Below, in pieces: positions 3,096 to 20,663 of a DNA stretch of 64,000 bases. The notes under the pieces are model-generated. The model searched no databases. It worked only from the letters and a program-made list of their open reading frames with translations, and was not told the DNA's origin. The translations under genes were made by a program, and so were the position numbers. The stretch comes from an uncultured Nitrospiraceae bacterium (GTDB taxonomy: Bacteria > Nitrospirota > Nitrospiria > Nitrospirales > Nitrospiraceae), in assembly GCA_963706325.1 (NCBI GenBank), contig CAVPLT010000002.1:179748-243747 (forward strand). Reading direction: 5' to 3'. How positions within the stretch are numbered: position 1 is the first letter of the stretch; every line of letters begins with the position of its first letter.

Positions 3096-4016
3096 CTAAT
3101 TAGGTTCATTGGCCGACGCGGTGAATGCCGCTGCATGCTTTCTGATGAACTCCTGCAAGCTCAGGGGCGCATGTCTCGTGAGCGTCAGCACGTCGTCCGA
3201 CATCCGGTCGTAGCGTCCCGCGCGGTGCAGATCGGCCATCGTCGCGAGGTGGTTCACCAAGTGAACCGGCAAGCCGCGCTTGAGCAGCCCATCCCGCCAC
3301 GGCTCGGCCGGAATATCCTGATAGGTGATCGTGCGGCCAAGCGCCTTCGAATACTCCTGGGCATAGAACTGCATGTTCTCGGACTGCGGACCGGTCAGGT
3401 GATAAATCTTGCCGATGTGCGACTGCGGGTTCGCGAGCAGCGCGGCGACCACACGGGCAACGTCATCCGCTGCAATCGGCGACGTCTTGCCTTCGCCGAA
3501 CGGGAGGCGGATCTGATCTGAGCGCTTGACCGAATCCGCTGTGAACAGCAGGAAGAAGCCATCGAGAAACACGGTGGGCCGCACATGCACGACCGGCAGA
3601 CCGGACCAGTTCAGCGCCTGCTCGGCAAGCCAGTGCAGCTTGTGCTGCGGGCTCGCGGTGGTGTCGGTGATGCTCATCTGCGAGACTGTCATCTGCGACA
3701 TATTGACGAACGCCTTTACGCCGTGATGCTTGGCCACCGCCGCTACATTGACCGTCGCGGCCAAATAGGTATCCGACACCGACATGCCGAAGTACATCGT
3801 CTCGCAACCGGCAATCACCCGATGCATCGACTCGAGATCGAGGAGATCGCCCGCCACGACATCCGCACCCAGGTCGCGCAACGCCTGCGCGCGGTCGTCT
3901 TTGTTGCGCACCATCGCTCGCACCGCGTGGCCTTGCTTCAACAGCAGTTCGGTGACCGTGCGCCCGACCGCGCCGACGCGACCCGCCGCGCCTGTGACTA
4001 GAATGGGTTGTGCCAT
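3096..4016 (-). CDS. NmrA-like NAD(P)H-binding atypical SDR
   Basis: ILVTGAAGRVG Rossmann motif; RBS GGAGG before ATG at 4016. Confidence 0.88.
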   Translation of the reverse strand: MAQPILVTGAAGRVGAVGRTVTELLLKQGHAVRAMVRNKDDRAQALRDLGADVVAGDLLDLESMHRVIAGCETMYFGMSVSDTYLAATVNVAAVAKHHGVKAFVNMSQMTVSQMSITDTTASPQHKLHWLAEQALNWSGLPVVHVRPTVFLDGFFLLFTADSVKRSDQIRLPFGEGKTSPIAADDVARVVAALLANPQSHIGKIYHLTGPQSENMQFYAQEYSKALGRTITYQDIPAEPWRDGLLKRGLPVHLVNHLATMADLHRAGRYDRMSDDVLTLTRHAPLSLQEFIRKHAAAFTASANEPN

Positions 4017-4293
4017 CTGCTGTCCTCCTGTGAGTTTCCTCTGAATGAACATCAGAGGTAGTGTCGCCAAACGGCTTCAAGCCTGATCATTTGGAGCAGA
4101 CCAACGGGGGGACGGAGCAGTCTACTGTAAAGCTGGTGGGGTATCCATCACTTCGGAGACGATAGAGGAGCGCTAAAGGTGAGAAAGTAAGCCAGCACCG
4201 GCTGCCAGGGGCGGGGAAATTGATTGCAAGACCTGAGGTGACTCCGAAACAATGGGCGCCTCGGAGTGCCACAATCTATCTATTTCGCTGTGG

Positions 4294-5361
4294 TCATTGC
4301 GCCTGGGCTCGACGCGACAGGGACACGATATAAGAGGCTGAACGGGCGGCGATCATGGGATCGGCTGCTTCGATACCGGGAATCAGCGCTCCTGGCATGA
4401 AGAGCAACTTCTTTTCCGCGGTTTGGCTGTCCGCCACGGCTTTGGTGATAATGATCGTACCCAATTCGATCTGCTTGCGACTGTCCGGCCACGCGATCGT
4501 GGGATCGTCGATCTTGTCTCCTTTCTCAGCCACCTGCAGGAGCAATTTGAACTTGGCGGGACCACGGCGCACGCGTTCGCGAATCTCGGTGCTCAGATAA
4601 TCAGATCCCGCCGTTCCGAGTTGCTCCTGGGTGAGGAAGTGCTCGCCCGCCACGGGCCGGAGCTGGTAGCGACCGAATGTGACGGTGCCTTTCGCGTTCG
4701 TGAATTTGAACGAGTTAATCCCGAAATAGGGCAGGGTGGCGTAGCTCACCGGTTGCGGCTTGGGGCTCTCCACGAAATTTTTTGCAGCCGGATGGGATCC
4801 CAGAAACGTCTCGATGGCGGTTGGTTTGGGAGCATCCGGTCCGCTCGCACCAACTGCAAGCAGAAAATCCCTGAACTCTTCCGCCGTCGCAACCGGAAAT
4901 CCGTTGAACGAAAGGACCACGAGGTCGGTGTTCGATCCATCCGGTAATGAGAACTTTACGGCCATGCCGCGCGGCATCTGGCTGGTGTCCGGGACGCTCG
5001 GTTGCCCGGAACCAGCAGAGAACCGCACCGTCACTGGAACCGGCGCCTTCTTCTTTTGCAGATGAGCGGCTTTGCTCACCGAGGCCGCCGAGGCAGCAGG
5101 GGTGAACGTGCCTTCCAAGACGACGCCCTTTGGGTGATTGGCGCGCATGCCAGGATGAACACCGAATACACCGTTGAAGGCATCGACGAGTTGCTCGGGC
5201 AGCGATTTCTGACTCGCGGGCGACTCTTCAGCCATGACAGAAGCGGGGAGAGTCATGGCAACGGCGAGTGTGGCGGTGGCTGCGAGTGATCTCCACATAG
5301 GCAGGTCCCTCCTCGAAGGCTGCGATTTCGACAATGAGCGGTTTTGCGTGAGCTCACCCAA
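4294..5361 (-). CDS. Catalase-related peroxidase (SrpA-type), exported
   Basis: RANHPKG distal His, VRFS, RGMAVKF, RSASY proximal Tyr; N-terminal SRR plus hydrophobic signal. Confidence 0.88.
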   Translation of the reverse strand: MGELTQNRSLSKSQPSRRDLPMWRSLAATATLAVAMTLPASVMAEESPASQKSLPEQLVDAFNGVFGVHPGMRANHPKGVVLEGTFTPAASAASVSKAAHLQKKKAPVPVTVRFSAGSGQPSVPDTSQMPRGMAVKFSLPDGSNTDLVVLSFNGFPVATAEEFRDFLLAVGASGPDAPKPTAIETFLGSHPAAKNFVESPKPQPVSYATLPYFGINSFKFTNAKGTVTFGRYQLRPVAGEHFLTQEQLGTAGSDYLSTEIRERVRRGPAKFKLLLQVAEKGDKIDDPTIAWPDSRKQIELGTIIITKAVADSQTAEKKLLFMPGALIPGIEAADPMIAARSASYIVSLSRRAQAQ

Positions 5362-5521
5362 TCACGTCTGTGAACCGCTGGGGAGGTTGGTTGGGAGAGC
5401 GGTGAAGACCCTACTCCTACGTGCCGGTTGAGTCAATCCGTTCGCGAGGCTGGATGAGAGGGACAGGGAAGGAGTGGCCCGGCATGCGGCGGATATGTTA
5501 GTTTGCAAGGCCGGACCCCCC
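5351..5521. repeat. ~170-bp direct repeat copy 1 (leftward promoter plus TTGCAAG-GACCCC end)
   Basis: Aligns by eye with 8455-8622. Confidence 0.8.
5408..5436 (-). promoter_or_regulatory. Putative sigma70 promoter of the catalase gene
   Basis: TTGACT-N17-TAGGGT on minus strand; both boxes conserved in the second copy at 8512-8540. Confidence 0.55.
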
Positions 5522-5676
5522 CCTCTAGGCTTCTCACAGAATCATTCAAAATTATTTCGAAGACGCTGCAGCCTTTCTTAACCTCTGAGTTCAGAGACCT
5601 TGCCTGGCAAAAATCGGATTCCCCCGCGCATCCCTGTTCGCTATAATGCGCCCGAATTTTAATCGGGAGGTGCTTC

Positions 5677-5979
5677 ATGGCATTCAATCAAGTGGGAGAT
5701 TTCTGGTTGGCGCCCGGTGAATCTACCCGCGTTCATATTGCCCTCGGAGGCCTGATCAACGAGGCTGAATGGGGCGGTCATGATTTCGGCGCACAATGGA
5801 TCATGGCCGACGGGATCGGGATCAATCCGGTGCGGCTCATGGTCAGCGAGCACACCAAGGAGAAGAAGCCCATTCGCTTGCATCCCGGTTCGCCCAGCCC
5901 CATCGTCTACTCGGTGACCGTGACGAACATCGGTGAGGAACTGGCTCATTTTACTATTCAAGGCGGGGGAAACGTATAG
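5677..5979 (+). CDS. Hypothetical protein (100 aa, beta-rich)
   Basis: Strong RBS GGGAGG; coherent composition; operon with next ORF. Confidence 0.75.
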   Translation: MAFNQVGDFWLAPGESTRVHIALGGLINEAEWGGHDFGAQWIMADGIGINPVRLMVSEHTKEKKPIRLHPGSPSPIVYSVTVTNIGEELAHFTIQGGGNV

Positions 5980-6000
5980 ACGTGTCGAAGGAGGTCGCAA

Positions 6001-6264
6001 GTGAAGGCTAAGCGGACTATTCATGTGGTGACAGATAAAAAGGGAACAATTGTGGGTGGAGGGATTCTCACCCCCGGGAAAGATACCAAAGGCAAAGCGG
6101 TGCATATCCAGATCTCGCCGATGAAAGGGCAGTCGCTGGCCGAAGTCGCGATGCCCGCTGAAATCGCGCAATTGAAAGGCGCGGAACTCTTTCGCCGGCT
6201 GCAGAGCGATTTTCATTTGCCACGCGGCAAAAATGAGTTGGTCCGAAAGGCCGGACGGCGCTAG
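6001..6264 (+). CDS. Hypothetical protein (87 aa, basic)
   Basis: RBS AAGGAGG before GTG; 21 bp after previous ORF. Confidence 0.72.
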   Translation: MKAKRTIHVVTDKKGTIVGGGILTPGKDTKGKAVHIQISPMKGQSLAEVAMPAEIAQLKGAELFRRLQSDFHLPRGKNELVRKAGRR

Positions 6265-6529
6265 AAGGGACTGCATCTTTGTCAGCAGAATGTCGAATGA
6301 CCATCGGGTAGTAATGGGGGGCAGCAGAAGTCGACCGCTTCGCGCCTGGAGGGTTGGGTTGTAAGACGTGATCCTATTGGGGCTGCTATCTGTGACTATC
6401 AATGAAGAAAGCCGCCTGAAATATGGGATTGCCAGACCAGAACCTAGTAGGGAAGGCCGTGGGAGTCGTTGACAAGCTATCAGTGAGTCGGGATAATCGC
6501 GCGCCTATTAGGAACGGGAGATTCCAGCC

Positions 6530-6991
6530 ATGAGCAAACATGCCGCCAGAACGACAGAACCGTTCATCGTGACACCCCAAAAGTACGACCCCGCCTTGAA
6601 CGTGATCGGTACCAAGGTGACCGTGCTCGCGTCAAAGGCGGCGACCCAATCCTATGAGATCACCCTGCAGCAGGGCGATGAAGGAATGGGTCCACCGCTG
6701 CATAGCCACAACTGGGACGAATCGTTCTTTATTCTCAAGGGCCAAGTCGAGTTTTCCTGCGCAGACAACATCACACTCTGCATGCCCGGCACGCTCGTGC
6801 ACGTACCCGCGGGCGCCAAGCACGGGTTTCGCTATGGGGCCGGCGGCGGCCAGATGCTGGAATTCACCGGCCCAGGCAGCCTTGCTTCCCAGATGTTCAC
6901 TGCCCTCAACAGAGAGATTCCACCTGGTCCACCCGACATTCCCAAGGTGCTGGAGGTACTCCAGCAAAACGGGGTGACCGTCGCGGCTTGA
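6530..6991 (+). CDS. Cupin domain protein
   Basis: PPLHSHNWDESFFILKG and GTLVHVPAGAKHGF cupin motifs. Confidence 0.88.
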   Translation: MSKHAARTTEPFIVTPQKYDPALNVIGTKVTVLASKAATQSYEITLQQGDEGMGPPLHSHNWDESFFILKGQVEFSCADNITLCMPGTLVHVPAGAKHGFRYGAGGGQMLEFTGPGSLASQMFTALNREIPPGPPDIPKVLEVLQQNGVTVAA

Positions 6992-7202
6992 GGCCACCCT
7001 GTCGAACAGCCCGGCCATAAGGATTCAGATCCACTTCTTTTGGAATTCAAAGACCATCAACGCACCGCGCCTTTCTCCACCTGCATCGCCTTCCATGAAC
7101 CACGGCTTCCGGCTCAATTTATCTAAGTAACCAGCGTTGGCGCGAAATGATCAGCCCCCCCTTTCTTTCCCGCTCTCACAGCTGGTAAGAGAAGCTCATA
7201 TC

Positions 7203-8330
7203 ATGGCAAACCCAAAGCTATTTGAGCCGATCACAATCGGCGGACAGAAGCTCCGCAACCGCATCGTGATTGCGCCGATGTGCCAATATTCGGCGGTCGA
7301 TGGCCAGATGACCGATTGGCACCTGATACACCTGGGCCATCTCGCTCTGTCCGGGGCGGCGGTGCTGACCATCGAGGCAACCGCGGTCGAGCCGGAGGGC
7401 CGTATCACCTACGCCGACGTCGGGCTATGGAGCGATGCGACCGAAGCGGCGATTGCGCGCACTATTGAAAGTATCCGTCGCTGGTCGGACATCCCCATTG
7501 CGATCCAGCTGGCCCATGCGGGCCGGAAGGCGTCGGTCGAAGTGCCGTGGAAAGGTGGAGCCCAGCTTCCGGTTGATCATGAACATGGCTGGCAGACGGT
7601 CGCCCCGTCGGCGATACCCTTTGCAGCCGGCCAACATCCGCCGATCGCGCTGGATCATTCAGCGATGCATCGCCTTCGCGAATCGTTCGTTTCCTCCGCC
7701 CGGCGCGCCGCGCGGTTAGGCCTCGACGCGGTGCAGCTTCATGTCGCACATGGCTACCTACTGCATGAATTCCTGTCGCCGCTTTCGAACCGACGAGAAG
7801 ACGAGTATGGCGGGGCGCTGGAGAACCGCATGCGGTTTCCGCTCGAGATTTTCGACGCAGTTCGCGCCGCGTTCCCGGCCAACCGGCCGGTGACGGTGCG
7901 CCTGTCGGGCACCGACTGGATTGAGGGCGGCTGGGACATCGAACAGACCATCGCATTCGCCAAGGCCTTAGAGGCGCAGGGTTGCGCCGGGATCCATATC
8001 TCCAGCGGCGGGCTCGATCCGCGCCAGCAGATTCCTGTCGGCCCCGGCTACCAGGTGCCGCTCGCCCGAGCGGTCAAGGAGGCCGTCTCGATGCCGGTGA
8101 TTGCCGTCGGCCTCATCACCGATTACGACCAGGCCGAAGGAATTGTGAGCAGGGGGGATGCGGATATGATCGCACTCGCCCGAGCTGTGCTCTACGATCC
8201 GCGTTGGCCTTGGCACGCAGCGGCGCACCTTGGCGCGCAGGTGACGGCGCCGAACCAATATTTGCGCAGCCAGCCAAGCCGCTATCGAGATTTATTCATC
8301 GAGGATGGGAAGGGGAAGAAAAGAGAATAA
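7203..8330 (+). CDS. NADH:flavin oxidoreductase (old yellow enzyme, YqjM/NamA-like)
   Basis: NRIVIAPMCQYSA, QLAHAGRKAS, HVAHGYLLHEFLSPLSNRREDEYGG. Confidence 0.93.
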   Translation: MANPKLFEPITIGGQKLRNRIVIAPMCQYSAVDGQMTDWHLIHLGHLALSGAAVLTIEATAVEPEGRITYADVGLWSDATEAAIARTIESIRRWSDIPIAIQLAHAGRKASVEVPWKGGAQLPVDHEHGWQTVAPSAIPFAAGQHPPIALDHSAMHRLRESFVSSARRAARLGLDAVQLHVAHGYLLHEFLSPLSNRREDEYGGALENRMRFPLEIFDAVRAAFPANRPVTVRLSGTDWIEGGWDIEQTIAFAKALEAQGCAGIHISSGGLDPRQQIPVGPGYQVPLARAVKEAVSMPVIAVGLITDYDQAEGIVSRGDADMIALARAVLYDPRWPWHAAAHLGAQVTAPNQYLRSQPSRYRDLFIEDGKGKKRE

Positions 8331-8454
8331 GAATCGCATGATTGATATTTCTTCTCGGCTCTCACCTCACTGGGTGGCCAGATTCTGCAAATGATTTCCC
8401 CTGGGTCAGTCCGCCCTGAAAAATATAGCATCGACAATGTATAGCTTATATGCA

Positions 8455-8622
8455 AGTTCACTCAATTAAGACTGAGAACCGATGGAGAGGCTGCTTGGGA
8501 GAGCGGTGGAAACCCTACTCCTCCATGCAGATCGAGTCAATCGAGCGAGCGGGATGAGATGGAAAAGGAAGGAGTGGCCCGCTGTACGCCGCGAAATGTT
8601 TGATTGCAAGACCTGACCCTCT
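8455..8622. repeat. ~170-bp direct repeat copy 2; its right end is the left arm of a 26-bp inverted repeat
   Basis: Matches 5351-5521; 8597-8622 = TGTTTGATTGCAAGACCTGACCCTCT. Confidence 0.85.
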
Positions 8623-8672
8623 GTCTTGTTACTCCGGACACCTTTTGCATTTTCCCATCCACATCGAAGGAT

Positions 8673-9737
8673 TCATTCGGTACTAAGTTCAATGGAGAAT
8701 ACCCCTTCAAGATCAATATGTACCTGAAGGGATGGCAGGGCTAGATAGGTGCACAGATACTTAACATTGAGGGATCCTTGGAACACACGATTGGCTATAT
8801 ATCCAGCCGCTTGCCCCTGATACTGTAGCTGTGTAGCAAGCCCTGCAGTCTCAGTACGCCATCGCATCAGATCAAATATCTGTTCCCCATCCTGAATCTT
8901 TATCGCCCCTATAACATCGAAAACTGTTGGTGTGTCTGGAGTCGATGCGATTTGCTGGGCGAGTGCGACGTATTCTATATCGAGCAGGCGCTTATCAAGC
9001 GCGAATCTGAGCAGGGCATCATGTGGCATGGCCCACGATAGCTTTGCGCGAATTCGAGATTGATCATCCCTCGCCACTGTGCCGCCGGTCACTGTGACAC
9101 GAAACCCAATCAGTCTCCCGCAGATCTCATTGAACTGCTCAACTACATTCGACGGCAGTTGAGTATTGGATGACCACTGACAGGTGGCATAGCGGATATT
9201 GCCGCCGCGAATGTTTGCGCTCGAGCGTAAGCCATCCGCGAGTGGGAGCCCAAGGTCAACACGCGGCGGACTGCAGTCTCTCCGTATCGCGGCGGGAGAA
9301 AGAATCCCCTGAAGCTGTGTAGCCATTGCCTGAGGATCAGACACAGTAAGATCTACTATCGGACTGTCTGTAGATTTTTGTGAAGTATGGTGAACTGTTA
9401 AGCGCTTTCCATTGAGAACGACGGAGTATGCAGCCGACACCTCAGGATGGCGCGCGTATGTAATTGTCTGCTCAATGGCGTCAATATCTATGGGTTCCTG
9501 CGGCGCTTTCGTTTCAAGAACCCATCGACCTGCGCCCGCCACTGTCAGAATGTAGTCTGCTCTTCCTCTGAGTGGGGGATCAGTGCTCTTTTTTCTTCCA
9601 AGCGACTCACGCTCGTAGATTAGCGTCGCCTCGCGAGCGATATTGTTGGCAGTTCCTCTTTCGTAGCCCAGTGCGGCCAATAGTGGTGCCGCAATCTCTT
9701 CTCTTACGTCAGTTTCATTTGCGTTAGGTGGAATCAT
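8673..9737 (-). CDS. Type I restriction HsdR N-terminal-like PD-(D/E)xK nuclease domain protein with unknown C-terminal domain
   Basis: NETDVREEIAAPLLAALGY, RADYIL...VLETK, EQTITYA, VVLNG motifs; lower GC than flanks. Confidence 0.75.
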   Translation of the reverse strand: MIPPNANETDVREEIAAPLLAALGYERGTANNIAREATLIYERESLGRKKSTDPPLRGRADYILTVAGAGRWVLETKAPQEPIDIDAIEQTITYARHPEVSAAYSVVLNGKRLTVHHTSQKSTDSPIVDLTVSDPQAMATQLQGILSPAAIRRDCSPPRVDLGLPLADGLRSSANIRGGNIRYATCQWSSNTQLPSNVVEQFNEICGRLIGFRVTVTGGTVARDDQSRIRAKLSWAMPHDALLRFALDKRLLDIEYVALAQQIASTPDTPTVFDVIGAIKIQDGEQIFDLMRWRTETAGLATQLQYQGQAAGYIANRVFQGSLNVKYLCTYLALPSLQVHIDLEGVFSIELSTE

Positions 9738-10156
9738 TGGATTAGTTTTGGCTGTTGACCGGCAACGCCGTACCCAGCAGCTCCGCTGCCTAACCTGTGC
9801 TGGAAAGCCTTCTTAGCGAGCAGTGGCCTTAAAGAGTTGAAATACATTGCCGTCAGGATCCCATCTGGTGCTGCTTCAGAATGTCGAATATTCCGCCGAG
9901 TTGGGGTATTCGAGCGACCAATCAATGACATTTACAGGTGTCCGCAAAACATGAGCTAGTTCACCTTCTTATCACCGTTGCCCATTGCGTCGTTGAGTAA
10001 AGGAACGAAATTGCTCCAAAACTCTCGGCATATCCTCCTCTGTGATATGAGCTGGTTGCGAAAATCCACATTTTCGCAGTGGCGGACAGGACGACTTAGT
10101 GTACGCAGCTGTAGGCCTGACCACCACTGAGAACCTGTTGGACCTGGAGCCTGGGC

Positions 10157-10513
10157 CTAGCGCTGGACGGGGGACAGAATCCACTCGTTGGCTGTAAATA
10201 CCGGCTGGCGATTCATTGCCACCGCGAGCCGAAAGCCTAACGCATGGAGGAGGGCATCGAGGCTTCGAAATTCAGGATTGCCGCGCTCCGGAAGCATGCG
10301 ATACAGACTTTCCCGATTCAACTTCGTTTTCTCGGCGAGCGTTGCTACCCCTCCTTGTGCCTCAGCCACATTTCGTAACGCCAGCAAGAACAATTCCGGA
10401 TCATCCTCTTCGAGCGCGGCATTCAAGTACTCTTCAGCTTCCCGCGCATCTCGCAGGCTTTCGATGAGATCTGCTTGATAGGCTTTGCTCTTCTTCGTGG
10501 CCGCCTCCTGCAT
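10157..10513 (-). CDS. Addiction-module antidote (HigA/HI1420-like HTH) copy 1, probably degenerating
   Basis: EEYLNAALEEDDPELFLLALRNVAEAQGG...NRESLYRML; relative to copy 2, start ATG>ACG (10496-10498) and stop TAG>CAG (10205-10207). Confidence 0.75.
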   Translation of the reverse strand: MQEAATKKSKAYQADLIESLRDAREAEEYLNAALEEDDPELFLLALRNVAEAQGGVATLAEKTKLNRESLYRMLPERGNPEFRSLDALLHALGFRLAVAMNRQPVFTANEWILSPVQR

Positions 10514-10537
10514 CCGCTCAAATACCGGTTGGCGGCT

Positions 10538-11623
10538 TCAATATTGCGTGCACTTCCCGAGCATCCGAACGATTTGGCCAGTTTCGGTACTCCAGACGAT
10601 GGGCGAACCGAATGTTATACCGCCAACGATATATTTGCCATTCGGACTATATGAAACGCCTCGAACGTTCAGCTCATGAGGAACCTTAAGTTGATGTTCC
10701 GGCTTTGCCGACTCGATGTGCCATATCGTTATGACCTCCTCCCCCAATCCTCCTGAGGCCAAATGGATTCCATCAGGACTGAATGCTAACTGCGTCAATT
10801 CCGACCCTGAAGTGTTGTATCCGAACTTTCGCACGCTTTCACCAGTGGTTGTGTTCCACATGGAGATTGCAAAGTCCTTTGCATCATTTGGGTAAGCAAG
10901 CGCAGCAACGAGACGATTGTCCGGGCTCAACGCGACAGAAAAAATGTGTCCCTCGACCCTAAAACTTTGCTTCTGTAGCTTAGCCCTCACATCCCACGAA
11001 CGAACCGTCCCGTCCCGGCTGCCAGAGAACAGGGTGGACCCATCAGAACTGAAAGTTAAGGATTCGACGACATCCCAGTGTCCTTTCAACTCTGCGACCA
11101 TCGACCCATGTTTCTTAGCCTCCCAAATTCTGATCGAGTTATCATGTCCGCCGGACGCGATCATTTCACCATCTTGACTATAGGCGACCGTCCTTACTCC
11201 TCTCATATCCTCGGTTGAAAAGACCTCAATATCATCAAATACCTCTCCTCGCGGATTGTCAGGGTCTATCCCATAGAGCCTGACAGTCCGATCTCTAACT
11301 CCCGCCGCGAAACGGCTGCCATTTGGACTCCAAGCTACAGACATGACTCCTGCCAAAAGAGGTCCATATCCATCTTCACCCTCGCGAATGCGTGGATCGT
11401 CGATGTAGACAAAAGGGCCACGTTCACATGCGTCAGCTCGCCACAGTCGAATCGTTCAGTCAAGGCCACTGGAAAGAATATGCCTTCCATCGGGGCTCCA
11501 TGCCACGGCTGTCACCTCTTGTTTGTCGGGCAGAAAGTACGTTAGTGCGCGAACCGCCGTCCCAACACAAAGGGGGACTAATGCCACCATCGTCAAAGCA
11601 CCGACTTTTAGGATGTTCCTCAC
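10538..11623 (-). pseudogene. Secreted WD40-repeat protein with in-frame TGA
   Basis: Frame continues upstream of the called ORF: MRNILKVGALTMVALVPLCVGTAVRA (signal) ... VTAVAWSPDGRHILSSGLD*TIRLW; TGA at 11456-11458. Confidence 0.78.
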
Positions 11624-11661
11624 AACGCACGAGAATACACGGATCCCATAAGGATTTCGAT

Positions 11662-11787
11662 AAATGGTTCTCCAAGCCTGCTTCCCGCCTTAGAGCGCGT
11701 CCTGCTCGGTCTCCCACTGCGCGTGTCCAACGAGGGGAGTCCGCGACCGCGCGTTGCACGAGCACAGGAGACCAGCATGACGCCCTT
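11662..11787. repeat. GC-rich palindromic repeat family B copy
   Basis: GCGTCCTGCTCGGTCTCC-CACTGCGCGTGTCCAACGAG...CGCGCGTTGCACGAGCA-CAGGAGACCAGCATGACGC; matches 13923-14035. Confidence 0.8.
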
Positions 11788-11790
11788 CTT

Positions 11791-11898
11791 CTCCCTCTCC
11801 CCCCTCGTAGAACGCAGGCGTTCTCAGCCAACTGCTTGTGGATCCACGGTTTCACGGAGCCACCCATCAACCGCTCTCAGTTTGTATGAGAATCGAAT
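11791..11898 (+). repeat. Duplicate of radical SAM gene leader and first codons (MRIE)
   Basis: Aligns with 14527-14635. Confidence 0.85.
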
Positions 11899-11907
11899 GC
11901 GAGCAAG

Positions 11908-11933
11908 AGAGGGTCAGGTCTTGCAATCAAACA
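11908..11933. repeat. Right arm of 26-bp perfect inverted repeat
   Basis: AGAGGGTCAGGTCTTGCAATCAAACA is the exact reverse complement of 8597-8622. Confidence 0.92.
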
Positions 11934-11990
11934 ATCAGGCGTATGCTTGGTTGGCAACAGGGGTTCATTCAGACGCCTTGCGGCCTGCAC

Positions 11991-12284
11991 CTAGCGATTC
12001 ATTGCAACCGCGAGCCGAAAGCCCAGCGCGTGGAGGAGGGCGTCGAGGCTTCTAAATTCAGGATTGCCGCGCTCCGAGAGCATGCGATACAGACTTTCCC
12101 GATTCAGCTTCGTTTTCTCGGCGAGCGACGCGACCCCTCCCTGAGCCTCTGCCACATTTCGTAACGCCAGCAAGAACAATTCGGGATCATCCTCTTCGAG
12201 CGCGGCATTCAAATACTCTTCAGCTTCCCGCGCATCTCGCAGGCTTTCGATGGTATCTGCTTGATAGGCGTTGCTCTTCTTCAT
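11991..12284 (-). CDS. Addiction-module antidote (HigA/HI1420-like HTH) copy 2, intact
   Basis: 97 aa, RBS AGGAGG, ATG overlaps the TGA of the upstream toxin remnant. Confidence 0.88.
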   Translation of the reverse strand: MKKSNAYQADTIESLRDAREAEEYLNAALEEDDPELFLLALRNVAEAQGGVASLAEKTKLNRESLYRMLSERGNPEFRSLDALLHALGFRLAVAMNR

Positions 12285-12363
12285 GGCCGCCTCCTGTATC
12301 CGCTCCAATACCGCTGGGCGGTTTCAATATCTTTGCCTGTGTGCGCTTATCCCCTCCGCAGAG
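12281..12363 (-). pseudogene. C-terminal remnant of HigB/HI1419-like RelE killer
   Basis: LCGGDKRTQAK/DIETAQRYWSGYRRRP* with a frameshift; N-terminal part replaced by unrelated sequence. Confidence 0.75.
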
Positions 12364-12710
12364 TTGCCAAAGATTGTCGCTTTTTCCTGAGGCAAAGCCG
12401 GACTTCTTTGGCGGTCTCCACGAATCCAAACGTCGCTTATAAGCTACCTCGTGGCAAGGTGGCCTGGCCGGTTCCAAACGTGCGCGCGTACCACGGTAGC
12501 CTTCTGGGGCCGCATGTTGCGGGCGCGCGGAACTGTCAGGCCACGCTTCTTCTATCTCCCGTTCCGTCTTTTTCCATCCTGGACTAAATTTCGCGGCGGT
12601 CACTTGTGACGAAAACAGCTTTTTGATTTCCTGAAACAGATCCACAGGTGTTCAGCTGTACGTTTCCGCTCCACTTCCCAGACCCTCAGAGTCTGGCTAT
12701 AATAGACAGT

Positions 12711-12902
12711 ATGGAATCGACCAAATACATTTATTGGCAGGATCAAGGGCAGTGGCTCGGTTACCTCCAGGACTACCCTGATTACTGGACGCAAGGGGAG
12801 TCGTTCGACGATCTGCAATCCCATCTTCGTGATCTATACCGCGACCTCACCAGCGGTGAAATTCCCGGAGTACGCAAGCTTGCCGAGCTGACACTTCGGT
12901 GA
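12711..12902 (+). CDS. hicB: HicB-like antitoxin (short)
   Basis: YWQDQGQWLGYLQDYPDYWTQGESFDDLQSHLRDLY; overlaps the hicA start. Confidence 0.8.
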   Translation: MESTKYIYWQDQGQWLGYLQDYPDYWTQGESFDDLQSHLRDLYRDLTSGEIPGVRKLAELTLR

Positions 12903-13078
12903 AGCGCAACGACCTCCTTCGAGAACTTGAATCCGTCGGTTGTGTGCTTGTCCGTCATGGTGGAAAGCACGACTAGTATCACAATCCCGCCACGAAGGTT
13001 TCCCAGCCCGTTCCTCGCCACGCCGAGATCAACGAACATCTCGCAAAACGTATCCTGAAGCTGTTGGGCAATTCCTAG
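12899..13078 (+). pseudogene. hicA: HicA toxin with nonsense codon
   Basis: MKRNDLLRELESVGCVLVRHGGKHD*YHNPATKVSQPVPRHAEINEHLAKRILKLLGNS; TAG at 12974-12976 where Trp is expected; not in ORF track. Confidence 0.85.
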
Positions 13079-13094
13079 TACTATTCGCGCTTCA

Positions 13095-13305
13095 GTGGCG
13101 GCCTTGCGGGTTCTCAACGTGCGCGCGTCCAACGAGGGGAGTCTGCGACCCGACTTCATTTTTTTACCAGGAGCAGTCGACTTGCCCTTCAGCTGCGCAC
13201 GTGGGACGAGCACTGTCAGTAATGGTACTTCCGAGCTTGCTCGTTATTTCTCATCTCAGGAAGGGTGCCGGTGCTGTTTCCAACGAGGGTCTTCGGAGGC
13301 CGCAT
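13095..13305. repeat. Family B repeat fragments
   Basis: GCGCGCGTCCAACGAGGGGGAGT, TGCCCTTCAGCTGCGCAC..GACGAGCACTG, TAATGGTACTTCCGAGCTTGCT, CTCAGGAAGGG all recur at 13923-14510. Confidence 0.7.
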
Positions 13306-13438
13306 GTTTATCAAACGGAGGAAAGCGTAGTGATGTCTTCCGAGGTGAGGGGCAATCACATCCACTGTTGGACGGGTTCCTATCGAAGTGCTAGGATGTT
13401 GCAGAGTGATAACAATACATACAGCGTTTAGGTGATCT

Positions 13439-13639
13439 ATGAGCAAAGTAGAAGCGATTGAAGAACAGATTGAGAAACTTTCTCTCGATGAACTCGCGGC
13501 ATTTCGGCGCTGGTATGCGGCGTTTGATGCGGAGACTTGGGATCGTCAGTTCGAGGGTGACGTGACGGCGGGCAAGCTCGATGCTCTCGCAGAAAAGGCT
13601 CTAAGTGCGCATGCGTCCGGCCAGTCGAAGCCGCTTTGA
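13439..13639 (+). CDS. Putative antitoxin (66 aa, acidic)
   Basis: VEAIEEQIEKLS..ELAAFRRW..WDRQFEGDVTAGKLDALAEKA; 4-bp overlap with toxin. Confidence 0.75.
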   Translation: MSKVEAIEEQIEKLSLDELAAFRRWYAAFDAETWDRQFEGDVTAGKLDALAEKALSAHASGQSKPL

Positions 13640-13893
13640 TTCACCACGCCTCACCAGATTTTTGGTCCTGTTACAACGCGCTTCCTGTTTCGATTCGTGA
13701 ACAAGCCGATCACGCTTTTAACCTGTTGAAGGCCAACCCCCGGCACCCATCGTTACATTTTAAGCAGGTGGGCAGGTTTCGGTCCGCGCGAGTTGGGCTC
13801 CAGTATCGAGCGGTCGGAGTTGATGCAGCAGACGGTATTGTCTGGTTCTGGATCGGTACGCATGCAGAATACGACAAACTTATTCGGAAGTAG
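13636..13893 (+). CDS. ParE/RelE-like toxin
   Basis: LLKANPRHPSLHFKQV, SARVGLQYRA, WFWIGTHAEYDKL. Confidence 0.8.
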   Translation: MIHHASPDFWSCYNALPVSIREQADHAFNLLKANPRHPSLHFKQVGRFRSARVGLQYRAVGVDAADGIVWFWIGTHAEYDKLIRK

Positions 13894-13922
13894 AGGGGCA
13901 GCCGACCTTTCTCTGTCTACCC

Positions 13923-14510
13923 CAATGCTCCTTCCAAGCTTGCTTATTCGTTCTCCCGCGAAGGGCGCGTCCTGCCTGGTCTCCCACTGCGCGCGTCCAA
14001 CGAGGGGAGTTTGCGACCGCGCGTTGCGCGAGGTCCACGGCGCGAAGAATAATGAGCGCCATGCTCGTGGACGCCGGCGAGACGGTGAGCCGGCTGTGTC
14101 TTTCAGGAGCCCAACAGGCCGCTTCTCTTTCCAGCTCTATCGTTTTCTCACCCTTCACCAGGGAATGGCCGGGTTGCCCTTCAACTGCGCGCATCGGACG
14201 AGCACTGTTTCATCGTGCGCGTTCTGCGAGCAAGAAGGGCTGCCGGCCGCTCCCGCTATCCATATATAATGTCCCTCCAAGCTCGCTTGTTTGTTTTTCT
14301 CTCAGGAAGGGCGCTGTTGCTGTTCCCAACTGCGCCCGTCGAACGAGACCCTTCCCAGGGCGCGCGTTCCGCTCCTAATGCTCCTTCCAATTACTAAACG
14401 CTCATATACCAGGGAGGAGTCAGGCCGTCCTTTCAATGCGCGCATCGAACGAGCACTGCTTCATCGTGCGCGTTCTGCGAGCAAAAAGGATGGCTTGACT
14501 GCTCCTTTCC
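13923..14510. repeat. Tandem cluster of about four family B palindromic repeats
   Basis: AATG(C/T)(T/C)C(T/C)TCCAA leader near 13923, 14267, 14376; TGCGCGCATCG(G/A)ACGAGCACTG(T/C)TTCATCGTGCGCGTTCTGCGAGCAA at ~14186 and ~14437. Confidence 0.82.
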
Positions 14511-14622
14511 CCTCTCCCCCTTGACCCTCCCTCTTCCCGCCTCGTAAAATGCAGACGTTCTCAGCTAACTGGTTGTGGATACACGGTTTCACGGAGCCAC
14601 CCATGAACCGCTCTCGGCTCGT

Positions 14623-16521
14623 ATGAGGATCGAATATACAAAGGGCGAGCGGGCATCGCGCGAGCTGCTGATGGTCCAGCGCGAGACCTCCGAAGCCACC
14701 AGCGGCCGGAAGATGAAGGTCATGCTGATCTTCCCGCCCGACTGGTTCCCTTCCGAACCCTATCTGAGCCTTCCTTCCCTCACCGCGGTCCTCCGCCAGG
14801 CCGGCCATACGGTCATTCAAAAAGACATCAACCTCGAGATGTGGGATTGGTACTTCAGCGAGGACTTCTTGAAAAAAGTCCTGCGCCGGGTGCCGCAGCA
14901 GCTCGACCGGCTCCGCAAGCTGGCCAAGAAACGCGAGCTCGAAGAATGGGAGCAGGATCTCCAGCTCGCGCTCTGCGATCTGACGCGCCAGCGGATCGAC
15001 GATCTGATCAAGAAGGCGGAGAAGGCCAAGGCGATTATTCGCGGGGAAGTCTTTTACGAAATCGATCAGTTAGAGTGGGCTCTTCATGTATTCCGTGAGG
15101 TCACGTCGGTGATCTCGATGGTCTATGCGCCGGCGCGGATCTGTATGCCGCCGATGGAGACGGACCTTTCTTATAAAGTCTTCGTGTCACACGAAGTGAT
15201 GGATGCGGTGAACGACACCCAGGTGAACATCTACCGCGACGTGTTCGAGCATCTGGTGAAGCCGGCGATCGAAGCGGAAAAGCCGGATGTGGTCGGCATC
15301 TCGATCGTCTTGCAGCAGCAGATGTTCTCCTCCATGACGTTCTGCGCCCTCATCAAGCAGCACTTTCCCAACATCCATGTGACCATCGGCGGCAACACGG
15401 TGACGCGCCTGCGCGACGTGCTGCCGGAGTCGCCGCTGTTTCAATACTTCGACAGCGCCGTGGTCTATGAAGGGGAGACGGCGTTCGTGCAGCTGGTGTC
15501 GGCGGTCGGGGCGAAGCGGAGCCTGGCCGATGTGCCGAATACCATCTATAAGGACGAAACCGGGGTGCACGTCTCGGCGACGAGTTTTGCGGAGGATATG
15601 GCCGCGCTGCCGCCGCCGGACTTCGATGGCTTGCCGCTGGACAAGTATTTCGTACCGACCAAGATTCTGCCCTATCTGGCGACCCGCGGTTGTTACTGGG
15701 GCCGCTGCGAATTCTGCGATCATGGCGAAGGTTATACGGCGGGCTACCGTACGAAGAAGATTCAGGACATTCTGGCCGAAGTGACCTATCTGCGCGACAA
15801 GTACGGCGCAAAGCATTTTCACTTTACCGATGAGTCGTATCCGCCGGCACTCTTTCGAAAGCTGACGCGGGGGCTGATCGACAGCAACATGGGCATTGCC
15901 TGGACGACGCACATGCGGTTCGAGAAGAGTCTGCTGGAAGATCAAGTCTGGCAGGATGCGAAGGCCTCGGGCTGCAAGTATCTCCACTTCGGCTACGAGT
16001 CGGGGAACGAGCGCGTGCTGAAGCTGATGGACAAGGCGACGACGACGGAGATCATGACGAAACATTTGAAGTACACCGCCGAGGCCGGCATCTGGAACCA
16101 CTGCATGGGCTTCTTCGGGTTTCCCGGCGAAACGCGGGACGAAGCCTGGTCGTCGGTGGAGTTTCTGGAGCGGAACAAGAATTATGTGCATTCGCTCGGG
16201 TTCGGCACGTTCGATCTGGGTCGGCATAACCCGGTGGCGAAACATCCGGAGAAGTTCGGCGTGACTGCCTACAAGAATCCCGAATGGGACCTGGCGCTCG
16301 ACTACTACTTCACCGTGAAGCAGGGGTTGAGCATCGAAGAGGCCGAGCGGGTGTTCCAAGAATTCGAACGGAATCACAATCCCGGCTGGGACCTGCGGCT
16401 CTTCATCCGCGAATATATCTTTCTCTACATTGCGCAGTTCGGGTTGCAGAAGCTGCCGGATCTGCAGTTCAGGACCGCCAAGGTCGCTACCACGGCTCCT
16501 TCATTAGCGGGGAAGATGTAA
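14623..16521 (+). CDS. B12-binding radical SAM protein (paralog 1)
   Basis: LIFPP..PYLSLPSLTAVL cobalamin-domain start; RGCYWGRCEFC CxxxCxxC; start uncertain (14575/14623/14713). Confidence 0.9.
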   Translation: MRIEYTKGERASRELLMVQRETSEATSGRKMKVMLIFPPDWFPSEPYLSLPSLTAVLRQAGHTVIQKDINLEMWDWYFSEDFLKKVLRRVPQQLDRLRKLAKKRELEEWEQDLQLALCDLTRQRIDDLIKKAEKAKAIIRGEVFYEIDQLEWALHVFREVTSVISMVYAPARICMPPMETDLSYKVFVSHEVMDAVNDTQVNIYRDVFEHLVKPAIEAEKPDVVGISIVLQQQMFSSMTFCALIKQHFPNIHVTIGGNTVTRLRDVLPESPLFQYFDSAVVYEGETAFVQLVSAVGAKRSLADVPNTIYKDETGVHVSATSFAEDMAALPPPDFDGLPLDKYFVPTKILPYLATRGCYWGRCEFCDHGEGYTAGYRTKKIQDILAEVTYLRDKYGAKHFHFTDESYPPALFRKLTRGLIDSNMGIAWTTHMRFEKSLLEDQVWQDAKASGCKYLHFGYESGNERVLKLMDKATTTEIMTKHLKYTAEAGIWNHCMGFFGFPGETRDEAWSSVEFLERNKNYVHSLGFGTFDLGRHNPVAKHPEKFGVTAYKNPEWDLALDYYFTVKQGLSIEEAERVFQEFERNHNPGWDLRLFIREYIFLYIAQFGLQKLPDLQFRTAKVATTAPSLAGKM

Positions 16522-18482
16522 TGTCGGCCTCAGGTCTCGTCCAGATCGACGGTCTGTCTCCGATCAAGCAAGAGGAACGGAAGACTTCCAAGGTCATGCT
16601 GCTGTTTCCGCCCGAGTGGGTGCCGACGGCGCCGTATCTCGCCTTACCCTCCTTGACCGCCGTGTTGCGAGAAGCCGGGCATACCGTGGTGCAGCGTGAC
16701 ATCAACATTGAGATGTACGACCACTTCTTCACCATGGAGTTTTTGATCTGGGTGAAGGGCCGCCTGGGCATGCAGCTGAAGCCGCTTCAGGACAAGGAAA
16801 AAGCCGGGAGGCTGACGGAGCAGGAAGCCAGTCAGAAATCCGTGCTGGAGCAGGCCTATGCGGTGGATGTGTTCGACTTGGCGCAGCGTTCGGAAGACGC
16901 GAAGGTCATTGTGCGCGGTGAGCGATTCTACCAAGCCGAAAAGTTGGAGCGGGCGCTGAACACGTTTCGCGAAGCGATGCAGTACATTTCCGCCGCCTAC
17001 TATCCGGCTTCGCTGGTGTTCTATCCCATGGAAAGCAACCTGGGCTATCGGCCCGGTGTCTCGAAGGAAGTCTTTGCCTGCCTCGACGACGAACAGGTGA
17101 ACGTCTACCGCGATATCTGCACTCAACTCGTGTTGCCCAGTGTGAGCAGAGAGAAGCCGACGGTGATCGGCATCTCGATCGGCACACAAATGCAGCTGAT
17201 GGCCGGCCTCACGTTTTGCAAGATGATCAAGGAAACGTTTCCCGGCATCCACGTCGTGGTCGGCGGCAATGTCGTCACACGGTTGCAGGAAGAATGGGCG
17301 AAGCATGAGCGTTTCTTCACCGAAGTCTTTGACGCGGCCATCTTGTATGAGGGCGAGCATGCGCTGCTCTGGTACATCGAGGCGGTGAACGGGCAGCGCG
17401 CGATCGAGTCGGTGCCCAATCTCATGTATTACGCGTCCGGCGCGGTGCAGCAGAGCAAGGAAGTCTATACGGAGAAGACGGCGGCGCTGCCGCTGCCTGA
17501 TTTCGACGGCTTGCCGCTGGATCACTATTTCGTTCCCGAGCGGATCATTCCCTACCTCGCGACGCGCGGCTGTTATTGGGGCCGCTGCACGTTCTGTGAT
17601 CACGGCCAGGGTTATTTCGATCAATACCGCGGGATGACGGCGCAGCATGTGGTCGAGCAGGTGACGGCGCTACGGGACAAGTACCAGTGCAAGCATTTCC
17701 TGTTCTCCGACGAGTCCTATCCGCCCGCGTTGTTCAAGAAGGTGTCGCAGCTGCTGGTGGACCGGAACGTCGGGATCAAGTGGACGACGCTGATCCGTTT
17801 CGAGGAGACGCTCCAGGACCAGGCGGTGTGGGACCTGGCGGCGAAGGCCGGCTGCTGCACGCTGTATTACGGGATGGAGTCGGCGAACGAGCGCGTGCTG
17901 AACCTTATGGACAAACACGCGAAGAAGAGCGTGATTCAGAACAATCTCCATCAGGCGGCGAAGGCAGGCATCTGGAACCACGTGATGGCGTTTTACGGTT
18001 TCCCCGGCGAGACGCGCGACGAGGCGCTGGAGACCCGGCAGTTCGTCATTGAGAACCAGCCGGTCATTCACTCGGTGGAGCTGTTCTACTTCGTGGCCTA
18101 CCGCCATACGCCGATGGTGCGTAATCCGGATAAATTCGGCATCACGATTCACAAGCAGGAGGAGTACGACCTGCCGCTGGATTACTATTACACGCTGAAC
18201 GAACCGGTGGGTATTACCTGCCTCGATGCGATGCAGCTGTGCGAAGAGTTCTATAAGAACGACTTCAGCCCCTGGGCGGTGCGGGTGAACAGCCGCGAGC
18301 ACGTTTTTCTCTATATCTCCAAGTTCGGCACGAATCGCTTGCCGCAGATCTACGCGGCGACGAAAGCGGGTGCGACGACGGCTGAAGGTGTCTCGGGTCT
18401 CGTGACCTGGCCGATGGCCATGAGTGAAGGGGATGAGGGCAAGGAAGGGATGAGTCGCGTTGTCTCCCACGGCGTCGGATAA
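16521..18482 (+). CDS. B12-binding radical SAM protein (paralog 2)
   Basis: RGCYWGRCTFC; TAATG stop/start overlap with paralog 1, so the true start is 16521 rather than 16284. Confidence 0.9.
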   Translation: MSASGLVQIDGLSPIKQEERKTSKVMLLFPPEWVPTAPYLALPSLTAVLREAGHTVVQRDINIEMYDHFFTMEFLIWVKGRLGMQLKPLQDKEKAGRLTEQEASQKSVLEQAYAVDVFDLAQRSEDAKVIVRGERFYQAEKLERALNTFREAMQYISAAYYPASLVFYPMESNLGYRPGVSKEVFACLDDEQVNVYRDICTQLVLPSVSREKPTVIGISIGTQMQLMAGLTFCKMIKETFPGIHVVVGGNVVTRLQEEWAKHERFFTEVFDAAILYEGEHALLWYIEAVNGQRAIESVPNLMYYASGAVQQSKEVYTEKTAALPLPDFDGLPLDHYFVPERIIPYLATRGCYWGRCTFCDHGQGYFDQYRGMTAQHVVEQVTALRDKYQCKHFLFSDESYPPALFKKVSQLLVDRNVGIKWTTLIRFEETLQDQAVWDLAAKAGCCTLYYGMESANERVLNLMDKHAKKSVIQNNLHQAAKAGIWNHVMAFYGFPGETRDEALETRQFVIENQPVIHSVELFYFVAYRHTPMVRNPDKFGITIHKQEEYDLPLDYYYTLNEPVGITCLDAMQLCEEFYKNDFSPWAVRVNSREHVFLYISKFGTNRLPQIYAATKAGATTAEGVSGLVTWPMAMSEGDEGKEGMSRVVSHGVG

Positions 18483-18607
18483 CAGGATGCTGAAAACGAC
18501 CTCCCCGGTCGTTCTCGGCTGTTCAAAATCCTCAACGTACCCCTGGAGGGTACGCCTCCGGTTTTACCTCACCTGCGGCCTAGTAGGACGCCGTTTTGAG
18601 CATCCTG
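18483..18607. repeat. ~125-bp MITE/REP-like repeat family A
   Basis: Terminal inverted repeats CAGGATGCTGAAAAC / GTTTTGAGCATCCTG; internal CGTACCC..GGGTACG hairpin. Confidence 0.85.
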
Positions 18608-18679
18608 AAGAATACGGATCGGCGTGACGTTTTGATCATCCGACGGTGAATAAAAATCTCATTGGAGAAGGTTTGACGA

Positions 18680-18928
18680 TCAGCTCGTTGATTCACCAGA
18701 CACCAGCAATACAGCGAGCAGGGCGTACGAAGTTTCGACGAGTTGGCTCATTTTTTCAGCTTGCTTGTAGGCCTGCATATATTTCTTAGGATTGTTCGTC
18801 AGATTGGCATACCGCTGGGGATTCCAGGTATGGAGGAGTTGCTCACGTCTCTGCTCCAGCTGCTCGCGGGTATAAGGCCGGGTGAGCGTAAAGAGTTTTA
18901 GAGCTTCGGTGAGGAGTCCCTCAGTCAT
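18680..18928 (-). CDS. Small J-domain-like protein lacking HPD
   Basis: EALKLFTL..TREQLEQRREQLLHTWNPQRY..AEKMSQLVETSYALL follows the J-domain helical pattern. Confidence 0.55.
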   Translation of the reverse strand: MTEGLLTEALKLFTLTRPYTREQLEQRREQLLHTWNPQRYANLTNNPKKYMQAYKQAEKMSQLVETSYALLAVLLVSGESTS

Positions 18929-19454
18929 GTAACGGAGTCTGGCAACTCGAGGAGACCCTGTCAATCTAGCAGGCGTTGCCTTCCGGCAGGAGGCAGTTTT
19001 CCACAATGGCCACTGCGCTCGCGATTGTTCAGCCCGCCAAATTTCAAGGATCGCACCGACAATCGACAGCAGCTCATTAGCAAATGGAGGGGGGGGAATT
19101 CCCTGAGCCTGGGCCGGGACTGTCCGTCACATGCGAACTCAGTTACGAGCTCGACCACTCCTGCCACGAAACCATCGACCTGCCGAAAACCGCAGGCGGA
19201 GACTGGAAGTTCATTCTCGATTCATCAAGCGGAAACGCACCGACCCCACCCAGTTCTGGTGCCTTGGCGCAAATTGGTTCATGAAATGGACTAATCTCCT
19301 CCTTCATTCCAACGCGATGGAATGGGAGGAGGATTACCTCCGCGAGACAGAGAAAGTATTCAATTCGAAATTACGCTGAGCAATACCTCAAGCATCACTT
19401 GCAGGTGTATGAAGCCCTCTTCAGGGTTCCGTGGGCAATGTAGATTAGATTCGG

Positions 19455-19556
19455 CAGGTCGTTCCCGGCTTGCTAAAACGCTCAACGTCCCTCTAGGACA
19501 TGATTCTGGACCTGCTTTGCCTGCGGTCTAGTGAGACGCCGTTTGTAGCATCCTGC
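19455..19556. repeat. Family A repeat, degenerate
   Basis: CTCAACGTCCC...CCTGCGGTCTAGTGAGACGCCGTTTGTAGCATCCTGC. Confidence 0.65.
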
Positions 19557-19733
19557 GGGAGTGGAACGAGAGTCGCTCAACGCGAAAGGTGAGCGCCGAC
19601 CATGCGCAGAGTTCGATTGTGCATCGAACTTCATCATTGAGCTTCTCCTGTGACGAGCCGCTCAGAGGTATCGCCCCTTGCAAAAAAAACCGACTCGGGG
19701 CAACATGCCGCCAGTCACTTTCGTGAGGAGCCT

Positions 19734-20663
19734 ATGGCTGAGCAGCGCAGATTGCAGTTCTACCATGCGGATGTGTTTACCGACGAACCGTTCGGTGGAA
19801 ATCCTGTCGCCGTGTTTCCCGATGCCGAGGGATTGACCGATGTCGAGCTCCAGCAAATCGCCCGCGAAATGAATTTATCTGAAACCGTGTTCGTCTTTCC
19901 GCCGACCGACAAGGCGGCGGTGGTCAAGATGCGTATTTTCACGCCGACGCAAGAAATTCCCTTCGCCGGGCATCCGGTGATCGGGACCTTTTTCGTGCTG
20001 GGGACATTGAAACGACTCTCGCTCAAGGAACCGGTGACTAGAGTGCTTCAGGAGTGCAACCTCGGACTGTTCCCCGTCGACATTCATTCCAGAGACGGCG
20101 TAATCGAGCGTGTGGTGATGTCGCAACCAAGCCCACAATTTTTGGATGTGATCGACGAACAGGAGGCGCTATTCGCCATTGCCCGTTCCTTGGGCATCAC
20201 GAAGGCGCTGATTACGGAGACGCGGTTTCCGGTGCAGGTAGTCTCGACGGGGTTGCCGGTCATCATCGTGCCGGTGCGGACGCTCACGGCAGTTCGGTCG
20301 ATCATTCCGGATGTGTCTAATATCGCGGACCTCTCTCAGCAGTACGGGGCCAATGGCCTTATGGTGTTCAGTACGATGACGGTCGAGCAGTCCTCGACGG
20401 TGCATACGAGAATGTTTGCGCCGTTGATCGGCATCGTGGAGGATCCGGCGACGGGCAGCGCTAGTGGCGCCTTAGGCGCCTATTTGGTACAGCACGGTGT
20501 CGTGGATATCGGTCCCATCACGACCATTACGGCTGAGCAAGGCTATGAGATCGACCGGCCCTCGCGTATTCTCATTCAGGTCGATTCGGACGAGGAAATT
20601 ATTCAATCCGTGACGGTCGGTGGACAAGCGATAATGGTGGTGGAGGGGACGCTCACCTTCTAG
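19734..20663 (+). CDS. PhzF family isomerase/epimerase
   Basis: DVFTDEPFGGNPVAV, EMNLSETVF, EIPFAGHP, EDPATGSA. Confidence 0.93.
   Translation: MAEQRRLQFYHADVFTDEPFGGNPVAVFPDAEGLTDVELQQIAREMNLSETVFVFPPTDKAAVVKMRIFTPTQEIPFAGHPVIGTFFVLGTLKRLSLKEPVTRVLQECNLGLFPVDIHSRDGVIERVVMSQPSPQFLDVIDEQEALFAIARSLGITKALITETRFPVQVVSTGLPVIIVPVRTLTAVRSIIPDVSNIADLSQQYGANGLMVFSTMTVEQSSTVHTRMFAPLIGIVEDPATGSASGALGAYLVQHGVVDIGPITTITAEQGYEIDRPSRILIQVDSDEEIIQSVTVGGQAIMVVEGTLTF

Follow-up and report, generated by a model that had tools for sequence, protein, structure and literature searches.

The window, a 64,000-nucleotide stretch from an uncultured Nitrospiraceae bacterium, harbors a 3.3-kb module between two inverted repeats of 26 nt: the left arm at 8597..8622 (plus strand) and the right arm at 11908..11933 (minus strand). 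As a first-pass annotation had claimed, the arms are fully complementary (100%); of the 25 longest inverted repeats listed for the window, theirs alone is perfect. That annotation had also described four enclosed pieces, a nuclease, an antitoxin copy, a WD40 gene and a truncated radical SAM gene. All four are present, but the nuclease domain scores below threshold, the WD40 gene has an internal stop and the radical SAM piece is a leader with 13 coding nt.

The stand-alone, HsdR-like protein of 354 aa is encoded at 8673..9737 (minus strand), its stop codon about 50 bp from the end of the left arm, and its match to HSDR_N is weak (E 6e-4, below the Pfam cut-off). HI1420-type antitoxin copy 1 follows at 10157..10544 (minus strand, ORF 10157-10513); copy 2 (11991-12308, minus strand) lies outside the right arm. 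Over 340 nt, copy 1 (10205-10544) is 92% identical to 11991-12330. The WD40 beta-propeller gene (10538..11623, minus strand, start position inferred) has an in-frame stop at 11456-11458. Next come a dispersed intergenic repeat (11692..11806, unstranded), with a further copy at 13962-14032, and a second copy (88%) of the radical SAM leader with its first 13 coding nt (11791..11898, plus strand), which is cut off at a junction. The intact leader and its B12-binding radical SAM gene (14527..16521, plus strand) form the conserved anchor to the right of the variable region. The order antitoxin, variable gene, dispersed repeat, leader is shared by 10205-11898 (~1.7 kb) and 11991-14635, and the former is a diverged tandem copy of the latter, which lies on the inner side of the right arm. 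Positions 13094-14490 and 18480-22750 contain dispersed intergenic repeats of several families, each present in many copies across the genome.

Identity and polarity of the repeat

The TIRtron and its transposase, TIRYT, were named by Di Nocera et al. (2013, PMC3733652) and later equated with TnpA-Y1 subclass 2.1 (Quentin et al., 2018, PMC6006769). The first-pass annotation had proposed that repeats like the arms flank Y1/HUH transposase genes, and this holds in a comparison set of 39 genomes of the genus, which is Nitrospira judging by named relatives of the source bacterium; the set consists of the window's assembly (G000) and 38 relatives. A 16-nt core of the arms is found in 20 of the 39 genomes (no match to the reversed control) and a looser 22-nt pattern in 32. 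In relatives, a 278-aa protein with Y1_Tnp (Pfam) and helix-turn-helix (HTH) domains is encoded between opposed copies of this terminal inverted repeat (TIR) that lie ~0.9 kb from each other. Ten elements retain both TIRs at this distance, tips outward, and stop-free Y1-HTH matches (250-278 aligned aa, 77-100% identity) occur in 12/39 genomes. TIRYT carriers include G025, G021 and G036, and intact genes for the 278-aa protein are present at L045 and L035. The relatives' proteins carry H60-Y-H62 (HUH), Y119-VVL-NP (Y-x-x-x-NP) and a C-terminal HTH at about 243-276; it is by these enzyme features, rather than by a tree, that they are placed in subclass 2.1. Intact elements have the transposase gene on the TGT side of each repeat, and the CCC end, the tip, points outward.

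Besides flanking a Y1/HUH gene in relatives, the repeat agrees with the pattern GGGG[AT][CG]A[CG] of TIRtron TIRs. Among 74 exact-core sites, 42 read GGGGTCAG and 26 read AGGGTCAG, the variant of the window arms, which has one mismatch to the TIRtron consensus. Judged by sequence, the window arms thus fit loose copies of the TIRs of a TIRYT of subclass 2.1. They do not delimit a complete TIRtron, because no transposase gene lies between them. Their polarity is reversed: the CCC tips of both arms point at the cargo, inside-out relative to intact elements. The left arm consists of the TIR core (8597-8619) and a 3-nt tail, its tip directed rightward into the module; the core of the right arm (11911-11933) directs its tip leftward.

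In its 4.24 Mb, the assembly holds two copies of the exact 26-mer and three of the 16-nt core (reversed-pattern control 0). The core is thus rare, which rules out that mere abundance of the motif paired the arms, a possibility that the first-pass annotation had named against itself. The 26-nt match comprises the conserved 23-nt core plus 3 nt. Within genomes, 28/759 TIR pairs are identical over 23 nt and 2/759 over 26 nt, the window pair counted. Since the core is conserved and identical pairs occur elsewhere, the perfect match is weak evidence for a recent shared origin of the arms. A TIR profile, trained on exact-core sites, returns only 8 sites scoring >=16 in the assembly. A decayed TIR (5496..5518, plus strand) terminates a 165-bp paralogue (5351-5518) of the left-arm inner flank, and another decayed copy lies ~10 kb left of the window. 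Two faint TIR-like copies (6352..6444, plus strand, weak scores of 17 and 21) are oriented like the left arm. TIRs are low-copy throughout, with 0-27 per genome.

The claim that neither transposase nor integrase lies inside or near the module is upheld for Y1 transposases and phage integrases. No intact Y1 transposase was found in the assembly (96% complete) and none inside the module; the sole Y1 trace detected by tblastn is a short and broken fragment from the N-terminus of a protein of a second Y1 family (C2:169662-169809). No REP-associated tyrosine transposase was found in the assembly and no phage integrase in the window, other recombinase families not having been searched genome-wide.

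A second TIRYT family, represented by a 742-bp element with a 223-aa protein and a different tip motif, was matched in 21/39 genomes, G000 not among them (G002:C273, G011:C50, G017:C97, G031:C133, G014:C12; also L132:4108-4130). It is present at the radical SAM locus in G037, G010, G017 and G023. At six loci (L031, L032, L033, L035, L036, L037), runs of same-facing TIRs occur on both sides of a TIRYT gene, pointing away from it and separating housekeeping-type genes at a spacing of 1-7 kb. The TIR core is also found on two viral contigs (L199, L200).

Arms and content in related genomes

A profile scan of selected loci, rather than of whole genomes, yielded 164 TIR sites in 27 genomes. Their inner (TGT-side) flanks fall into 63 families and their outer (tip-side) flanks into 135. 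The inner flank of the left arm (8455..8596, plus strand) belongs to family I4, with 9 sites in 8 genomes and 7 different outer flanks; that of the right arm (11934..12330, minus strand), which holds antitoxin copy 2, belongs to family I3, with 14 sites in 7 genomes and 14 different outer flanks. In 8 genomes on the left and 7 on the right, homology continues through the arm into the flanking DNA and breaks off within the module, so that synteny breakpoints coincide with the motif, as the first-pass annotation had predicted. A facing I4(+)/I3(-) pair upstream of the radical SAM gene recurs in G001 and G006, and G012 has the left arm with a decayed I3 right arm. Between the arms lie ~7.5 kb (G001), ~2.8 kb (G006) and ~8.6 kb (G012) of other genes, including those for a Sir2-like protein, a histidine kinase and a metallo-beta-lactamase-fold protein. 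In G035, the closest genome by radical SAM identity (94%), a decayed left TIR is followed almost directly by sequence matching 13934 onward; the leader of this genome is 91% similar to the intact window leader and 76% to the cut copy. Because the arms have orthologues with differing content between them, they belong to the chromosome, and it is the content that changes.

These data bear directly on the proposal of the first-pass annotation that the module is a non-autonomous capture or shuttle element, in which arms and cargo would be excised, inverted or moved as a unit by TIRYT acting in trans. The rarity of a perfect 26-nt match, the state of the window arms as the best-preserved TIRs of the locus, the absence of the cargo from relatives and the potential of recombination between inverted TIR cores to invert or swap content would all suit such an element. 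However, the polarity is wrong, homology passes outward over both arms, the module is single-copy, the 96%-complete assembly has no intact enzyme, and true TIR-bounded miniature elements (G025, G020) have their tips outward. The proposal is therefore highly improbable; the window module is a fossil example and no active shuttle.

The miniature elements are non-coding, ~340 bp long and have outward TIRs (L038/L062 in G025:C6:323000-357000, L082, L083, L027 in G020, and L086). In each, the right-arm inner flank, represented by the 3' end of the antitoxin gene, is fused to the last part (3' end) of an 87-aa gene (window 6001-6264). In G025 at least 6 copies alternate with cargo genes.

A DNA search of the other 38 genomes recovered neither the HsdR-like nor the WD40 gene, a protein search (E<=1e-40) found no WD40 protein in these relatives, the HsdR-like profile had no match in 200 family genomes, and neither the assembly nor the 38 relatives yielded a further copy of the module. 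Part of the 64-kb stretch is contained in 20 rows of soil/rhizosphere metagenomes, and among contigs from 4 runs, two studies yielded pieces of the HsdR-like and WD40 genes at 99-100% identity. The HsdR-like protein is the product of a general mobile gene, with 325 homologues at E<=1e-20, and is a candidate stand-alone defence nuclease; on the cargo PADLOC gave only weak matches. The closest genome homologue of the gene (L132, 78%) ends 53 nt from a tip of the second TIRYT family. A TIR tip lies downstream of the gene in 1/34 other distinct flanks, the chance rate (3% in shuffles), which rules out a TIR-specific cassette as a rule. No stable hairpin was found upstream of it. Eight homologues (L152, L153, L161, L162, L165, L166, L168, L173) resemble integron cassettes by eye, with a GTTAG-type core upstream and a complementary core plus hairpin-like sequence downstream. 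In another Nitrospira the same radical SAM gene is immediately preceded by a distant homologue of the HsdR-like protein (37%, L134:2998-3907).

Junctions beyond the tips and a proposed model of the slot

Junctions do exist at the arms, as the first-pass annotation had stated, but on the cargo side of each arm and not outside it. At the right arm, a 12-nt tail beyond the core (11899..11910, minus strand) joins the radical SAM copy at 11898/11899, which is position +13 beyond CCC. Relative to TIR-less homologues, homology starts at +7 to +15 in 20/43 outer-flank families and at +1 to +6 in none, and the inner side has no junction peak (3/34 at +6 to +13). Tandem duplications of 8-26 nt occur at the tip in 16/164 sites, compared with 0/164, 1/157 and 0/161 in controls (35 versus 8 and 15 in a looser test). 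All 16 duplication units end at +7 to +13, and the start of 7 of them falls exactly at C|TGACCC. Sufficient flank was available at 144 TIRs, where the 7 local matches of the outer flank all lie on the same strand and on the inner side, at 71-91% identity; they include the right arm (2724 bp) and the C5 copy of the window's assembly (827 bp). The reverse event is seen in G034, where a 3-kb deletion starts at +13. A hairpin between TIR and tail was rejected as no better than shuffles, stems and folding energy at 133 sites being within the shuffle range.

The C5 copy (G000:C5:153342, L047) is the third TIR of the assembly; from +12 its outer flank is a 78% repeat of a stretch 827 bp inside, the geometry of the right arm. 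Four tips with different inner flanks, at L089, L008 (G017), L037 (G034) and L002 (G002), are followed by the same 12 bases, and one contig of this group stops 17 nt past the tip. They may be the terminus of some other, tip-targeting mobile element.

Taken with the orthologous arms, the junctions make it probable that the arms are solo TIRYT ends that stay in place beside their outer chromosomal neighbours, and that nicking at their tips followed by joining to other DNA produced a variable slot rather than a shuttle. TIRYT would bind the 23-nt core and its HUH/Tyr site would nick one strand, keeping one end as a 5'-phosphotyrosine that the free 3'-OH could then attack. The likeliest first nick, in line with the amplification model for TnpA-REP, is CC|TGA within the repeat, on the strand ending CCC; a single nick on the opposite strand would fit the junctions equally, and the data do not choose the strand. 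The enzyme, now absent from this assembly, likely built the slot by joining the end 7-13 nt past the tip to other DNA. The 7-26-nt tip duplications would arise if, after nick-primed synthesis, the end were re-joined locally. Kb-scale tandem alleles, of which 10205-11898 is an example, would result from joining to a more interior point, either on a sister or on DNA from a relative, and deletions and new cargo from joining outward or to foreign DNA. The 3.3-kb content would then be a patchwork of at least two pieces and not one unit.

Several observations weigh against this explanation. The other 23/43 flank families start at 0, inside the repeat or at +16 to +112, mostly further out, and these counts are of sites rather than of independent events, in kin genomes, from a profile trained on exact-core sites and with imprecise BLAST edges. 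The left junction is placed no closer than +1 to +56, and no consensus dinucleotide was found at the +7 to +15 junctions. Genes beyond the tips follow no orientation rule (37 toward, 28 away and 99 uncalled of 164, by a crude gene caller), and the loci of the 10 complete elements show no clean empty site or target duplication for whole TIRYT elements. The nick and transfer chemistry is modelled by analogy on TnpA-REP, and the literature searched, in which only two works name TIRYT or the TIRtron, contained no assay of TIRYT binding or cleavage. The antitoxin tree has no supported branch and does not separate a foreign copy 1 from an old local duplicate, the HsdR-like gene adjoins tips at the chance rate given above, and among the contigs listed from the 4 metagenome runs none spans an arm or shows a joint at a tip. 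TIR-less genomes also vary at the radical SAM locus, and the radical SAM leader is duplicated where no TIR was detected (G026, G032, G037); therefore another process makes similar duplications there.

Such variation would be expected if the arms were passive remains of two separate TIRYT elements or miniatures in an old hot spot. The content would then have arrived by unrelated routes, through homologous recombination with the radical SAM anchor or through other mobile elements, and the junctions would record the original insertions or adjacent deletions. The TIRYT gene at this locus in G021, the miniature elements there in G025 and the chance association of the HsdR-like gene with tips agree with this account. 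On the other side, orthologous TIRs have changing outer neighbours (I3 14/14, I4 7/9), often joined at +7 to +15, and many inner flanks are ordinary chromosomal sequence rather than element remains. Changing neighbours at an orthologous TIR call for repeated events at a stationary tip; passive remains are the less probable account. Anchor-gene ends duplicated where no TIR was detected (L081 in G026, L059 in G032, L052 in G037, and L132:2605-2655), namely the radical SAM leader with the 5' end and what we read as the 3' end of the glutamate synthase small subunit, suggest a second, homology-assisted insertion route.

The same-facing TIR arrays next to TIRYT genes raise a further alternative, in which TIR-carrying gene cassettes are excised and inserted by site-specific recombination from TIR to TIR, as in integrons. 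Three of 12 multi-member outer families pair with more than one inner family, and many convergent genes stop 13-23 nt from a tip. However, no rule of gene orientation holds beyond the tips, some of the enclosed genes are truncated or broken, a search for the cargo genes elsewhere yielded no TIR-bounded units, and most junctions lie outside the repeat rather than within it. Cassette exchange of this kind is very unlikely.

We tentatively raise the possibility that inward-facing TIRYT repeats act as gene-capture slots, in which an HUH enzyme with a fixed 23-nt site splices almost any DNA end 7-13 nt past the tip, and accessory genes (nuclease-like, toxin-antitoxin, signalling) might accrete between converging tips without attC-style cassettes. 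If true, this would give a function to the second-largest TnpA-Y1 subclass and a gene-acquisition system separate from integrons, miniature inverted-repeat elements (MITEs) and REP/RAYT; subclass 2.1 enzymes occur in 14.9% of the strains surveyed (Quentin et al., PMC6006769). The junction map predicts a substrate (23-nt core and tail), a candidate nick (CC|TGA), joining 7-13 nt past the tip and, as products, short tip duplications, tandem alleles and one-sided deletions. If a small enzyme acting on single-stranded DNA can join a defined end to arbitrary DNA, it would account for hypervariable islands without integrases and could serve as a ligation tool.

Comparison with known systems

TIRtrons share with the present repeats a Y1/HUH gene, a C-terminal HTH and long TIRs fitting the same pattern, and solo, dimeric and clustered TIRs away from the gene are known for them (PMC3733652). 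The window arms differ in lacking the enzyme gene and in the single mismatch to the consensus. TIRtrons and clustered solo TIRs have been known since 2013; the main accounts, whose supplements may list cases, do not describe the polarity rule, the junction position, the tip duplications or the variable slot between inward tips (PMC3733652, PMC6006769). The literature searched, supplements being outside its scope, held no description of tip junctions, gene capture at TIR tips or inward-facing slots.

TnpA-REP of E. coli belongs to the same catalytic family, its gene is usually single-copy and capture of flanking genes has been proposed for it (PMC3333891, PMC8266576). It cuts single strands at C|T, in one class TGCC|TGA, forms a 5'-phosphotyrosine and can cut hundreds of bases away (PMC3333891, PMC8266576); the proposed amplification model combines a nick, 3'-OH-primed synthesis and attack on the phosphotyrosine (PMC3333891). 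In contrast to REPs, which are GTAG-tagged, high-copy hairpins, the TIRs are low-copy and have no significant hairpin. The arms carry no GTAG tag, fold like shuffles and share an exact core that occurs three times in the assembly, so that they are not REP, REPIN or BIME sequences.

MITEs and composite transposons likewise consist of inverted repeats around DNA without a transposase. In them the unit moves and its outer ends border host DNA; in the present case the outer ends point to the content and the arms remain in place. Inward tips, a single copy and homology that crosses the arms outward set the module apart from MITEs.

Integrons also combine a fixed chromosomal platform with variable accessory genes split by repeats. 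Unlike in integrons, the joins lie outside the repeat, and the genes are often cut and of mixed orientation (37 toward versus 28 away, with truncated and broken genes) instead of forming whole-gene cassettes in one orientation. The window has no phage-integrase gene, and positions 4000-16000, including the leader and the arms, gave no Rfam match to a structured RNA (E<=0.1), no dedicated attC model having been run.

In one-ended rolling-circle capture by IS91/ISCR elements, an HUH enzyme joins one defined end to variable DNA. Their ori and ter ends differ from each other and their enzyme is Y2, whereas the present system has the same repeat at both ends and a Y1 enzyme.

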